Source: a virus. Taken from it: a stretch of DNA of 32,207 nt. Numbering within the stretch: the first letter of the stretch is position 1; each line of letters opens with the position of its first letter. The position numbers are program-made. The stretch lies in the UHGV virus genome UHGV-0183840. The stretch is one strand, 5' to 3'. Of this stretch, positions 3,001-9,000 are shown piece by piece.

Positions 3001-6000
3001 TTTTAGCGGTTCTGCCTTCAGGATCGGTGTAGGTTAGTTCAATGTACGCATTCGGCTTTACCCAAACCAAGAACCTAAGCACAGCATATCTGACCATCGC
3101 TGCGACAGCCATGAATACAGTGATGTAAAGCATAATGCTTAGGATTGACATGATTTAAAGTAGTTTCCTATCTGCCGCCGCTCTGTGGCGTATAACCTTA
3201 GTAATACTATAGCGTGGTTTAGACAGCGCGCCATTTGTTTCTTTTGTTGTTTCTGTCAGTTCTACAACAAAAAGATCACCCTTACAGAATGCTGCTTGGT
3301 TGTGTTCAACCCGTTCAAGAAAAGCCTCATCTTTCATAGATGCGCTAACTTCTTCGCCATTTGGCAGGATGATATCCCAGCTTTTGCCTTGCTTGAATCG
3401 AACATTAGCAAAATGTACATTAGCTTGGCGTGTCGTTACGTGCGTTTTCTCGACAAAGGTGGATTTTGCAGTTTTAAAACTTGCTGCTTCAGCTTGCGTC
3501 ACCCTGACTACCTTATGCTTCTGCTGTGAAACTGAGAACGTGGATGGTTTTTCAGTCTGCAGGGGTTTATAGATTAATTTATCCAGTTCTTTTCGGATGA
3601 TTGGACTGGTTATTAATTTTTGAATGTCGTTACTGCATTTAACCTTCTCACCATCCACTTCGATTTCTGCTGTATCTTTTTGTTCATCGACGACAATGGA
3701 GCTGATTTTACGCCCTTTGAGCCATTCGATTATCCCGAGTACGCCGCCTGCGGCAACTCCACCACCAGCAACGAGGCCAAGAGCGTTAATAGTTTTTATG
3801 CTTCCCATCACAGCAACAAGCAAAGTAAATGAACCTTCTTTTGTTGCCTTGATGTTGACTTTCGGCTCTGCTGTTTCGCCATTAATTATTTTTTCGGCAT
3901 GTTCAATCAGGGCACTAAGAGAGGTTAAGGCTTCGCCTAATGTTTTGGCGTCGATCTGATTATCTGCGTATGCCTCTCCACCGTAGGCAATTTCGATTTC
4001 TGTTATTGGCATGTTTTCGAGCTGCTGTGCCATCAAAAGCATCCTTTGCGAAAGATAAATAGCCACAGGATACAGATAATTATGAAAAAATCACTAACGC
4101 GTACGCAAAAAATATCTTAATCTGTTAAGAGTGGTTACTTCGCCACACAGCTTAAACCCGCCGCCGGGCGTTTTTTCTATACCTGAAAAACGGCACAGGA
4201 CGTTAAATGCGCTGGTGGTTGCGAATACCGGTCTTTCAGCTTGCTGGCTTTTTCGACAAGAGTTATTGGTATGTCACGTTAACCGGAAAAGGGAAAAGAC
4301 ATGCTAAAACAGCAGGATATGACTGAAACCGCCAGAGTGGTATTTAATGAATTAAGCGTCACCGAACCGGCGACCGTCGGGGAAATTGCGCAGAATACTT
4401 ACCTTTCACGCGAACGCTGTCAGTTAATACTGACCCAGCTTGTTATGGCGGGTCTGGCAGATTATCAGTTCGGTTGTTACAGACGCCTTCCTCAGTGAAG
4501 GCTTTTTTATTTGTGGTAATGTGCGGCTGGTGGGTGTTAGCGGCACCTGCCAGCCATCTGCTCATGCGTTGGGGTCACAAGCAAACCTCAGGCCCATCTG
4601 CTTTGCGCAAAAGCGGTATGAGCCTATCAGAGAAGTGCTTATTGATCTATGGTTAATACTGTAAAAATATCCAGTTGTGAGTTAATCAACGCTGATTGCC
4701 TGGAATTTATCCAGACCTTGCCGGAAAACTCTGTCGATCTGATAGTCACAGACCCGCCATACTTTAAAGTGAAGCCCGAAGGCTGGGATAACCAGTGGAA
4801 GGGCGACAATGATTACCTGAAATGGCTGGACCAGTGTCTGGCACAATTCTGGCGTGTATTAAAGCCAACCGGAAGCCTTTACCTGTTCTGTGGTCATCGC
4901 CTGGCGTCTGATATCGAAATCATGATGCGTGAACGCTTTAATGTGCTGAACCATATTATCTGGGCGAAGCCGTCCGGACGCTGGAATGGCTGTAACAAGG
5001 AAAGCCTGCGGGCGTATTTCCCGGCAACAGAGCGCATTCTGTTTGCCGAACATTATCAGGGGCCATATCAGCCGAAACATGACGGCTATGCGGCAAAGGG
5101 GCGCGAGCTTAAACAGCACGTCATGGCCCCGCTGATTTCTTACTTTCGTGATGCGCGTGATTCACTGGGGGTAACATCGAAACAGATAGCGGAAGCCACC
5201 GGAAAGAAAAACATGGCGTCACACTGGTTTGGTACCAGTCAGTGGCAGTTGCCGAACGAGGGTGATTACAGAAAACTGCAGGTGTTATTTGCACGTGTAG
5301 CGGCAGAAAAGCATCAGCGCGGAGAACTGGAAAAACCACATCACCAGCTGGTCAGCGCATACAGTGAACTGAACCGGCAATATGCCAGCCTGCTGGCAGA
5401 GTACAAATCTTTACGGCGTTATTTTTCCGTATCGGCTGCTGTTCCTTATACGGATGTCTGGACGTACAAGCCTGTGCAGTATTATCCGGGCAAACATCCC
5501 TGTGAAAAACCAGCGGATATGTTACGTCAGATAATTACCGCCAGCAGTCGTCCGGGAGACTTGGTTGTCGACTTTTTTATGGGGTCAGGCTCCACAATTA
5601 AAGCCGCAATGACGCTGGGGCGTCGGGCAATTGGTGTGGAACTGGAAAAAGAGAGATTTAATCAAACTGTAACTGTAATAGAAAATAATCTTTAAACACG
5701 CTTTCTATTATTTATTAATTATTGAAACAATAAAAACATATGAGTATATTTACAAATATTGACATTGATTTTTATTGAAAAAATATCTTATCTCGTTAAT
5801 ATTCTCACCCAGTTCCGAGGGGGTATTGCTGGGACATTTTATTTTTCTTGAGGAACCATTGCCGACTTAGCTCAGTAGGTAGAGCAACTGACTTGTAATC
5901 AGTAGGTCACCAGTTCGATTCCGGTAGTCGGCACCATATGCGGGTATCGTATAATGGCTATTACCTCAGCCTTCCAAGCTGATGATGCGGGTTCGATTCC

Positions 6001-9000
6001 CGCTACCCGCTCCAGCAGAGGACGATGCTAGGCCGTTTCAGGCACTGACACATTATATGTGTGGGATGTTTTTAACCTAACTCCTTACCACATCCTGTTC
6101 TGTAATGAATATTATTTATTACGGTACCAGTGCTGTTTTTTTACAATAGTGGAATGGTGCATTACTGGTGGAGATTTGTATTTCCTGGCAGGGCTGGTAA
6201 TGTATCATTCCGGTGTTGTAAATGACACCCCAGAGACGTTCCTCAGTGCGAGGGTGGTTGAAAGAGTCGGTTTTGCGGGAAACCACAGCATCCATGCAGG
6301 ACTGGATGTTTCGGGAGGCACCCGACGTCTCTGGTCATAATAAAATCATCGTGTTCTCTTCATGCCATTTTATGCCATAGACCGCCACGCCAGGCGGTTT
6401 TTTTTTATTCAGAATTCAGTATTTATGCGGCTCGCTACGGCGGGCCTTTTTCATATCCGCGCCACGCCCGGCGAATATCAAAAACCACAGAGCCTTTCAG
6501 GGGTGAGCTTACGGGATGGTCAGTGTGACTTTCTCTGTGGGCTGGTCACCCCCGGGCGCAGGCTCACCCACTAAAAGGAAAAGTCACGATGTTTGGTATT
6601 TTCAAAAAGAAAACCCGCAAGGCCATTACTGAAGTGAAGAAGATGGAGAACCGCGACGCAGTGGAGGCGACTGTCTGGGGCGCGTATTCCATAGCATTCG
6701 CCGACGGCACCTGTGATGCGAAAGAAATCGCTGTGCTGGAGAAAACCATTGCAGCACTTCCTGCTTTTGCGCCGTTCTCGGGTGAGATTGCACAAATGAG
6801 TGCAAATATCCGCGCCCGTTATGAAGCGTCGCCGCGTTCTGCCAATGCTGAAGCCCTTCGCCAGCTGGCTGATGTTGCCGGTACTGATGATGCAGTTAAT
6901 GTACTGTGCCTGTGTCTGGATATCGCAGACCAGGATGGCATTGGTCCGGATGAAGAAGCGCAGCTCAAGAAAATTGCTCAGGCGCTGCAGTTACCGCTGG
7001 AGCAGTACCTGTGAAAAGTGCGCGCCTTGTGCTGGCTGCCATCCTGCTGTTTCTGGTAGTGGCGGTGGATTTCACCGGACGGCTGATGTCGGTGCTGGCA
7101 GATGGTGTGCTGGTGGCGATGGCGCTGGTCGTGCTCCGGCCTTTACTGCGTAAATCTGAATAACACCACACAAAAGGCATCTGCGGGTGCCTTTAACGGG
7201 GTGTTTTTTACGGGCCGCTGGTGGCCCTTTTTTATTTACAGGAGAAAAAAGTATGTCTGAACCCTTATCCGGTTCCGGCACGGCTGCGGCGCTCGGTGGG
7301 GCGACGGTGTACGGGCTGTTTACCGGAACGGATTTCGGGATTGTGTTTGGTGCGTTCGCCGGGGCGTTATTTGTGGCAACGATGCCGCAGGCGCTTTCAG
7401 CCTGGCGTGTGGCGGCGCATTTTCTGGTGTCGTTCATTATCGGCGTGCTGGGCGCAGAGGTTCTGGCATCCTGGCTGGTAAAGCATACAGAGTTTGACGG
7501 TGCACCTGTCGACGCATTGTGTGCAGTACTGGTGTCAGTGGTGTCGGTGAAGATTCTCTCGTTCATCCACCAGCAGGATATTGCATCGCTGGTGTCCGGC
7601 CTGTTCTCCCGCCTGCGGGGTGGAGGAGGCGGCAATGTTAAGTAACCTTCCCGGATTACTGAATGTGGCGTTATGCACGGTTATCGTGCTGACGCTCTTT
7701 TTTTATCGTCGCCGTGATTCCAGACATAAACCGCTGATGTCATGGCTGGCCTGGCTACTGATGCTGCTTTATGCCTTTGCACCACTCAGCTATCTGTGTG
7801 GTCGCCCGTTAGCGGCGAACTGGCTGGCGGTGGGGCTTAATCTGCTGTTCTGCGTGTTGGTGATTCGCGCACGCGGGAACGTTTCAAAAATCTTTGTATT
7901 ACGAAGGCGCTGATATGAAGTCGAAAGATGAAATTTTTGACGAAGTTCTGGGAAAAGAGGGCGGTTACGTCAATCACCCGGATGATAAAGGCGGACCGAC
8001 AAAATGGGGTATTACTGAAAAAGTTGCCCGTGCGCACGGATACCAGGGCGATATGCGTGATCTGACGCGCGGACAGGCGCTGGAAATACTCGAGGCGGAC
8101 TACTGGTATGGACCACGTTTTGACCAGGTGGCAGCGTTATCCCCTGATATTGCCGCAGAGTTGTGTGATACGGGCGTGAACATGGGGCCAACCGTGGCGT
8201 CAAAAATGCTTCAACGCTGGCTTAACGTTTTCAACCTGCGCGGAAAACTGTATCCGGATATGGATGCTGATGGACGCATCGGGCCGCGTACTCTTAATGC
8301 GCTACGGGCATATATGAAAAATCGTGGCAGGGATGGCGAACTGGTCTTACTAACCGCGCTGAACTGTACGCAGGGTGACCGTTATCTGGAGCTGGCAGAG
8401 AAACGCGAGGCCAACGAGTCGTTTGTCTATGGCTGGATGAAAGAACGCGTGGGAGTGTAGTTGAAATTCCACTTTTCAATGAAGTCGGTAAATCCACTTT
8501 GCAGATAGCACGACATTAGACTTACTGAAAAAGCAAAACCCCGGCTGGGGGAACAGTCCGGGGTTTTCTGTTTCTGACCTTGGGTAAGGCAAAGTAGAAC
8601 ATGAGGAAGTATAAACCAATTCTGTTGAGGTTGACTATGAAAAACGGCCTTGAATTGAAAGCGCCTGTAACTGATGACATCAGCAGAGCGGTGGCTTTTG
8701 CCATTAAGTGGGTGGCTGTCGGTATCGCTGTGTCTCCGATTCTGTATGGGATGGCAAAATTGATCATTGCTGTGAAATCGTAAGTGGTGCGGGGGTAAAT
8801 ATGTCAGATAGCATCATAAAACTAGCGAGGATTCTCTGTGTGGTTGTTGGCCTTTCATTTTCAGTGATGCTGGTTGCCATTTTCATTGCTACTGCCTGGA
8901 GAGTCTTGAGCTTATCTGGATTGATTGGTGGATAGCTGACATGAGCCGAAAACACTGGACACACAGAGTGCCGCGAACGGCGGCGAAATGGGCACTGGTA

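Follow-up and report, generated by a model that had tools for sequence, protein, structure and literature searches.

A host-type tRNA-Thr(UGU)/tRNA-Gly(UCC) cassette among the late genes of a lambdoid prophage and its probable role in late translation

The virus genome UHGV-0183840, a stretch of 32,207 nucleotides (nt) that we analysed over its full length and refer to as the window, corresponds to the late region of a lambdoid mosaic prophage. Between its Q antiterminator gene and its lysis genes it carries a cassette of two tRNA genes, tRNA-Thr(UGU) and tRNA-Gly(UCC). The explanation that best accounts for the whole of our data is that this is a host-type tRNA cassette supplementing late translation, and we consider that explanation to be probably correct. 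The identity of the genes, their host-type sequence, their genomic position, their prevalence and their match to codon demand are directly established. The cassette itself is already known, being a common and annotated accessory of Escherichia coli lambdoid prophages.

ARAGORN called two tRNA genes in the 32 kb of the window and no others, both on the plus strand. The first, tRNA-Thr(UGU) at 5861–5936, encodes its own CCA and is identical to E. coli K-12 thrU at 76 of 76 positions. The second, tRNA-Gly(UCC) at 5940–6014, likewise encodes CCA and matches K-12 glyT at 73 of 75 positions; both differences affect a single acceptor-stem pair, in which C6–G66 is replaced by U6–A66, and they compensate for one another. 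The spacer between the genes is the trinucleotide TAT (5937–5939), which 129 of 135 related junctions share. Both genes score well above the gathering score of 29 bits for Rfam family RF00005 (73.8 bits for Thr and 65.6 bits for Gly), and no Rfam family besides tRNA reached the gathering threshold in the window. An earlier note on this DNA had read the pair by eye as Thr(UGU) and Gly(UCC), 3 nt apart and each with an encoded CCA, and ARAGORN, Rfam and the sequence itself all agree with that reading, anticodons included.

Comparison with related loci points to maintenance of these genes as tRNAs. The change of the Gly pair C6–G66 to U–A occurs in 56 related loci, with U·G intermediates also seen, and a second pair, G48–C64, has become A–U in four loci. 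Changes in Thr lie mostly within the D-loop. The compensatory nature of the Gly changes and the confinement of most Thr changes to the D-loop are evidence that the copies evolve under tRNA-like constraint, and the leaders preceding them diverge to approximately 73% identity while the tRNAs keep at least 97%. In our judgement both genes probably encode functional elongator tRNAs of the cellular type.

To what use such tRNAs might be put is suggested by the codon content of the late genes. We compared the late genes of the window (7,036 codons) with 43 annotated K-12 genes (14,199 codons) and expressed the difference as excess demand per 1000 codons on each of 40 E. coli anticodon species. Thr(UGU) ranks first (+19.1) and Gly(UCC) second (+18.6), well ahead of the next independent anticodon species. 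The two remain the top pair in 808 of 1000 gene bootstraps, and the prior chance of drawing that particular pair is 1/780. By absolute excess among the 61 codons, GGG ranks first, ACG second, ACA fifth and GGA sixth. The suggestion of the earlier note that the tRNAs compensate for codon usage, for which it had pointed to ACA and GGA in the late genes, is thus well supported. E. coli has no UGU tRNA other than ThrU, which is scarce (PMC12445682), and the authors of the SfI study argued along the same lines for the Thr(UGU) gene of that lambdoid phage, in which ACA makes up 17.3% as against 7.1% (PMC3636060). We think it likely that the cassette serves to make two scarce host tRNAs more plentiful while the late genes are expressed, which would benefit the fitness of the phage.

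Several observations weigh against this interpretation. The host codons were taken from 50 kb of K-12, which is not the window's own host. In E. coli, thrW and glyU also read ACG and GGG. Ranked by ratio and not by absolute excess, AGA, AGG and ATA are enriched 3.3–4.9-fold as against 2.0–2.4-fold for ACA and GGA, and the window phage carries no tRNAs matching AGA, AGG or ATA. Lambda, which has no tRNA genes, shows Thr(UGU) at rank 1 (+18.9) and Gly(UCC) at rank 5 (+9.7); since a phage lacking tRNA genes shows the Thr excess too, codon bias by itself does not predict carriage. Finally, a few of the related copies look decayed.

The position of the pair fits a late function. A full-length Q antiterminator gene (2147–2506; PHROG 79; positions 2–112 of the 118 of Pfam PF06530) places the tRNAs in the late operon, and Q, the tRNAs (5861–6014) and the holin genes (from 7187) all lie on the plus strand with the tRNAs between Q and the lysis genes, the lambdoid late-region position that the earlier note had claimed for them. 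Phages 933W, phi467 and 21 have this layout too.

A 50-nt probe spanning the fused junction matched 866 of 5,426 complete E. coli genomes (16%), with up to five copies in one genome, and the junction pattern matched at least 120 IMG/VR contigs as well as prophages of Shigella, E. ruysiae, Citrobacter and Enterobacter. The Stx2f phage phi467 (LN997803), SerU-LTIIb (KU052038) and the E. coli DS26-1 prophage all carry the fused pair between Q and the lysis genes, at 97.6–99.1% identity to the window over the matched query segment. In phi467 the gene order is Q, stx2f, Thr, Gly and lysis genes, and both tRNA loci are named in the paper describing it (PMC5189129). RefSeq annotates the same tRNA-Thr and tRNA-Gly in the DS26-1 prophage, where the module comprising methylase and tRNAs (4152–6417 of the window) is 91% identical but the Q gene differs. 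The neighbours of the cassette vary: stx2f lies upstream of the tRNA pair in phi467, the LT-IIb toxin genes lie downstream of the lysis genes in SerU-LTIIb, and the window has a TerB-like open reading frame (ORF). None of the sequenced phage isolates covers most of the window.

The 135 related junctions fall into several array types. In 59 the Thr-Gly pair stands alone, as in the window. In 66 the array opens with a tRNA-Met(cat) and the Thr-Gly pair forms the 3′ end; the most frequent version of this tRNA-Met(cat) matches ileZ of phage 933W at 76 of 76 positions. Between the two, almost all of these 66 loci have a tRNA that shares approximately 80% identity with argN. The claim that this cargo differs from the lambdoid set ileZ-argN-argO therefore holds for the window, which has Thr and Gly only, but it has to be qualified in view of the 66 relatives that place tRNA-Met(cat) and, mostly, the argN-like tRNA ahead of the same pair; the window set is a different one within the same family of late-region arrays. 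Indeed, the ileZ-argN-argO set of 933W occupies the same slot, after Q and ahead of the moron and lysis genes, and the tRNAs of both sets serve rare codons. The differences are that ileZ, argN and argO are all missing from the window and that argN and argO are diverged phage tRNAs whereas Thr and Gly of the window are of cell-identical type. The argN-like tRNA that precedes Thr (for example in loci L010, L066, L020 and L116) has a variable and partly degenerate anticodon loop. Some copies read CUUCUAA (Arg UCU) and others CCUUUAA (read as Lys UUU, with C33 replacing the near-universal U33), and copies with 5-nt loops are called by ARAGORN as Phe(aaa), Leu(taa) or undetermined. These tRNAs may be pseudo-tRNAs, decoys or unusual decoders.

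Two further groups of phage tRNAs resemble the pair in part. The lambdoid phages 21, SfI, Sf6 and ST64T carry tRNA-Asn/tRNA-Thr(UGU) genes directly downstream of Q, pR′ and tR′. In this phage 21 type, however, Thr is paired with Asn and not with Gly, and it follows tR′ immediately without a promoter of its own; phage 21 Thr is identical to window Thr at only 50 of 76 positions, has an altered and shortened anticodon stem and resists the nuclease P2-Old. The clusters of T4/T5-type virulent phages are tightly packed and include Thr(UGU) and Gly(UCC), as does the window, but they comprise from 7 to more than 20 tRNAs at 84–87% identity, with diverged nuclease-resistant alleles, and the window phage is temperate.

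Upstream of the cassette the GC content drops to 0.19 at 5650–5799, compared with approximately 0.50 in the flanks, in keeping with the extremely AT-rich stretch remarked upon in the earlier note. Within this leader the best-supported promoter candidate is a putative sigma-70 promoter at 5775–5802 on the plus strand, with a −35 hexamer TTGAAA (5775–5780), a 16-nt spacing and a −10 hexamer TAATAT (5797–5802); it scored 9/12 in our scan and predicts a transcription start near 5809. In an alignment of 11 divergent leaders, in which the homologues are only about 73–75% identical, both hexamers stay promoter-compatible in every leader (the −10 being TAATAT, TATTAT or TATCAT). A second promoter-like site on the same strand at 5722–5750 (TTGAAA, 17 nt, TATATT) is the best consensus match (10/12); the −10, part of an invariant TATATTTAC block, is conserved, whereas the −35 is confined to the window's own subgroup. 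The context of that −35, TTATTGAAA, recurs 53 nt downstream, and the motif TTATTGAAA(C/A)AATA is found twice in 5719–5785, 53 nt apart, each time with a −35-like TTGAAA.

The hexamer TTGACA (5759–5764), which the earlier note saw as consistent with a strong promoter, is present and conserved, but as a −35 of the tRNA promoter it had to be rejected because no usable −10 lies 16–18 nt from it in any locus. It is part of the most conserved block of the AT-rich leader, TATATTTACAAATATTGACA (5741–5764, plus strand), in which the invariant TATATTTAC is followed by TTGAYA in the aligned leaders; this block is possibly an UP-element or a protein-binding site. An imperfect 24-nt palindrome (5728–5751/5754–5777) is centred on the same block and could possibly bind a regulator. 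A Q-dependent pR′ is an unlikely identity for the leader promoter, since leaders 98% identical to each other follow unrelated Q genes in the window and in the DS26-1 prophage (L001).

The transcript predicted from the candidate promoter would begin with a leader of approximately 50 nt. Folds of 11 loci give a structured 5′ leader at 5811–5857 (plus strand), consisting of an outer helix between (A)GUUCC (5811–5816) and GGAACC (5852–5857) and an inner G-rich/UC-rich helix; the long-range helix GGUUCY/RGAACC stops 3 nt short of tRNA-Thr. RNAalifold predicted 11 pairs, with one compensatory C–G to U–A change common to two divergent loci and G·U/G–C exchanges, and this modest covariation is no more than suggestive. 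We also considered the leader hairpin with its U-tract (5808–5849) as a general tR′-like terminator placed directly against the tRNA, as in phage 21, and discarded it, two related loci (L092 and L107) having no U-tract; the terminator-like fold of the window's own leader is not conserved, and most of the divergent related leaders have the long-range helix instead.

Some 365–430 nt past tRNA-Gly, a terminator scan found two hairpins on the plus strand resembling intrinsic terminators (6379–6400 and 6429–6446), which likely mark the end of a Q-independent tRNA transcript. Terminator-like sites also lie upstream of the cassette on the plus strand, at approximately 4156–4178 (by eye) and at 4485–4502 (by scan). 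The promoter at 5775–5802 and all four of these flanking terminators are consensus matches only. Phage 933W is annotated with the same layout of terminators, a tRNA promoter pT, tRNAs and a terminator, although we found no homology of the window leader to 933W pT. From this arrangement we infer that the cassette may be a small autonomous transcription unit that is also read through by Q-modified polymerase. A block downstream of the tRNAs (6128–6343) is approximately 80–85% conserved in most related loci, whatever their array type. It overlaps an ORF of 93 amino acids (6059–6340) without a PHROG or Pfam match and may be either a short gene or, within the trailer of the tRNA transcript, an RNA element.

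In the mechanism that we propose, the cassette, a compact unit situated between Q and the methylase gene on one side and the lysis genes on the other, would be transcribed probably from its own sigma-70 promoter through the structured leader to the downstream terminators, and would lie in the path of Q-antiterminated late transcription as well. RNase P and 3′ exonucleases would then release both tRNAs, as in established tRNA processing. The thrU copy should read ACA, ACG and ACU and the glyT copy GGA and GGG, and the added Thr(UGU) and Gly(UCC) would reinforce the two species on which the late genes place the greatest excess codon demand.

A different role, raised in the earlier note, is defence against anticodon nucleases: the cassette would replace host tRNAs destroyed by P2-Old or PARIS-AriB and late translation would continue. 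We regard this as unlikely for the window. The idea is topical because both nucleases target the same tRNA, Thr(UGU) having recently been shown to be the prime target of P2-Old (PMC12445682) and a prime target of PARIS (PMC12409363). P2-Old, the classic anti-lambda exclusion factor, prefers host tRNA-ThrU and amputates its anticodon arm, paired CNG motifs of the anticodon stem being the sites of cutting. Rescue from P2-Old by phage Thr(UGU) tRNAs, that of lambdoid phage 21 among them, is due to an altered CNG motif combined with a shortened stem, resistance needing both changes, whereas extra host tRNA-ThrU gives "little to no protection" (PMC12445682). AriB chiefly attacks Lys(UUU) and Thr(UGU) and, secondarily, Asn(GUU); a U16 to C change in tRNA-Lys impaired cleavage, and the tRNAs of T5 neutralise PARIS (PMC12409363).

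Some features of the cassette family fit such a role. The species targeted by AriB recur in lambdoid tRNA sets, 41 of 127 related loci carry a thrU-derived gene with U16C, and five loci combine G42C/U with U43C (for example L028, L043 and L133, reading TCACC, and L023 and L045, reading TCATC), which removes one CNG and reduces the anticodon stem to 3 base pairs (bp). At the level of sequence, the U16C and G42C/U plus U43C changes of the relatives match the published determinants of resistance to AriB and P2-Old. The anticodon arm of window tRNA-Gly (5966–5982) also shows the P2-Old cleavage signature, a paired CNG (C28-A-G30 and C40-U-G42) with A37, from which Gly(UCC) might be expected to be susceptible to Old. 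Gly is, however, absent from the Old substrates named in the main text of PMC12445682, Gly(UCC) is not reported as a nuclease target in PMC12409363 either, and the sole change in window Gly sits in the acceptor stem.

The Thr gene of the window argues more directly against this role. Its CNG motifs at 28–30 (CUG) and 40–42 (CAG), judged by the description in PMC12445682, are intact as in host ThrU, and all five pairs of its anticodon stem (ACUGA/UCAGU) are present, with no shortening. The positions of AriB contact and cleavage described in PMC12409363 are likewise host-like (U16, U39, C40 and A41; U36-A-A-U-C|A41). None of the published resistance changes in the CNG motifs, in the stem or at U16C, U39 or A41 is present in window Thr. 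Because its sequence is base for base that of the sensitive host tRNA, the window allele should not work as a resistant replacement, and the phage 21 tRNA that does protect is the one sharing 50 of 76 positions with it. Countering of anticodon nucleases is thus plausible for the tRNA species but not for the allele found here. A more far-reaching version of the idea would make the cassette primarily an anti-immunity reservoir of tRNAs destroyed by Toprim nucleases, with the window allele as the ancestral, host-identical form that helps only by replenishment from its own promoter, with relatives carrying resistant alleles (U16C; G42C/U plus U43C) and new anticodons (UCU/UUU), and with Gly(UCC) as a second, unreported Old-type target; we find this version improbable too.

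Taken together, the prophage thrU copies make up a series of alleles. In it U16C is frequent, alone or together with U20C, and is fixed in all 18 arrays that combine ileZ with Arg(UCU). Three loci have a thrU body with a different anticodon. In SerU-LTIIb (L003, 1122–1197) UGU has become UCU, annotated as tRNA-Arg, along with G24A and A31G, and in two IMG/VR loci (L086 and L130) UGU has become UUU. In these forms a point mutation at nt 35 seems to have switched the anticodon naturally.

Alternatively, the cassette could be a neutral passenger, a fragment of cellular tRNA genes that illegitimate recombination brought in and that has since travelled with the methylase/late-region module to no benefit. 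Lambda does without a cassette despite a similar codon bias, some of the relatives have copies whose stems are broken or whose anticodons are altered, and the sequences are identical or nearly identical to cellular genes. This last point says little about selection within the phage, since thrU and glyT tRNAs are ultra-conserved: the Thr and Gly genes of Photobacterium sagamiensis are identical to those of E. coli at 75 of 76 and 75 of 75 positions, respectively. Against mere passage stand the frequency of the junction (16% of the complete E. coli genomes and at least 120 IMG/VR contigs), its presence in several array contexts and beside different Q genes, the compensatory nature of the stem changes, the retention of promoter hexamers and leader while the surrounding leader diverges, and the fact that the cargo corresponds to the top two codon demands. 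We accordingly consider a passenger status unlikely.

The notion that the tRNAs and leader act mainly as RNA punctuation, that is as RNase P/RNase E entry sites or insulators between the methylase transcript and the moron/lysis messenger RNA and not as decoders, draws on the location of the cassette at a module boundary where morons vary (stx2f, LT-II, TerB-like), on the conserved structured leader and on the terminators on either side. Nothing in such a model demands these two particular tRNAs, however, and it leaves the anticodon-specific match to codon demand unexplained, so that we hold it to be very improbable.

Least credible is the proposal that the pair represents an independent phage tRNA lineage of T4 type and not copies of host isoacceptors, since, although the 3-nt packing and encoded CCA recall T4-like clusters and the T4-type (RB32) counterparts are recognisably homologous (Thr 64/76, 84%; Gly 65/75, 87%), identity to thrU and glyT is higher (100% and 97%), the tRNA half of our query is matched in 5,421 of 5,426 E. 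coli genomes, mostly at 95–99% identity, and the pairwise identities rule out a T4-type origin. The earlier note had judged the genes closer to T4-type tRNAs than to host isoacceptors; comparison with the host tRNAs reverses that judgement and shows them to be of thrU/glyT type.

The host-type cassette is nevertheless distinct from the E. coli locus that it resembles. In the tufB operon (thrU-tyrU-glyT-thrT-tufB) the genes thrU and glyT have the same order and strand as in the window but are 209 nt apart, separated by tyrU and its spacers. The window lacks tyrU, thrT, tufB and the host promoter, has prophage genes on either side of the pair and a phage-specific AT-rich leader in front of it, and its Gly carries U6–A66. 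The pair is therefore a phage-borne copy and not the chromosomal operon. The TAT spacer can be read as joined host flanks (CCA-T and AT-GCGGG) after loss of tyrU and its spacers; as the sole support for a tyrU deletion from the E. coli operon as the exact origin, a 3-nt spacer with a chance of about 1/64 is weak evidence. The sequences indicate a cellular donor, but this need not have been E. coli because a native adjacency exists in the chromosomal cluster of P. sagamiensis (L013), where the order is Ser(UGA)-Thr(UGU)-8nt-Gly(UCC)-Asn(GUU). A search for direct repeats around the cassette as a signature of insertion gave none that was convincing.

The remaining genes of the region complete the picture of a lambdoid late region. 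Upstream of Q lie an HNH/DUF968 gene (733–1782) and RusA (1795–2166). Three ORFs on the minus strand occupy 2519–4066 between Q and the methylase; the 303-amino-acid product of 3155–4066 matches the PADLOC candidate defence family PDC-S42 (E = 2e-53), and the other two (128 and 81 amino acids) matched only PHROGs of unknown function. They are followed by a small ORF with a terminator (4301–4498) and, directly upstream of the tRNAs, by a DNA N6/N4 methyltransferase gene on the plus strand (4649–5695; identified by PHROG, Pfam PF01555 and PADLOC MTase_II). Beyond the tRNAs and ahead of the holin, the moron slot is taken by the TerB-like ORF (6589–7014; Pfam PF05099; PHROG 632, "tellurite resistance"). 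Holins and endolysin follow from 7187, and terminase begins at 10047.

For the window itself these findings change little, since the likely role of the cassette is the textbook role of phage tRNAs, topping up tRNAs that are scarce relative to phage codon usage. It does offer a clean worked example, the carried tRNAs being precisely those that head the ranking of excess demand in the late genes. The wider interest lies in the Thr gene: the window copy is the baseline allele of a prophage series that runs from host-identical sequences to variants bearing the resistance determinants described in the literature. How nuclease-resistant tRNAs evolved in temperate phages may be recorded in this series, which could also serve to test how such phages derive resistant tRNAs from captured host genes.

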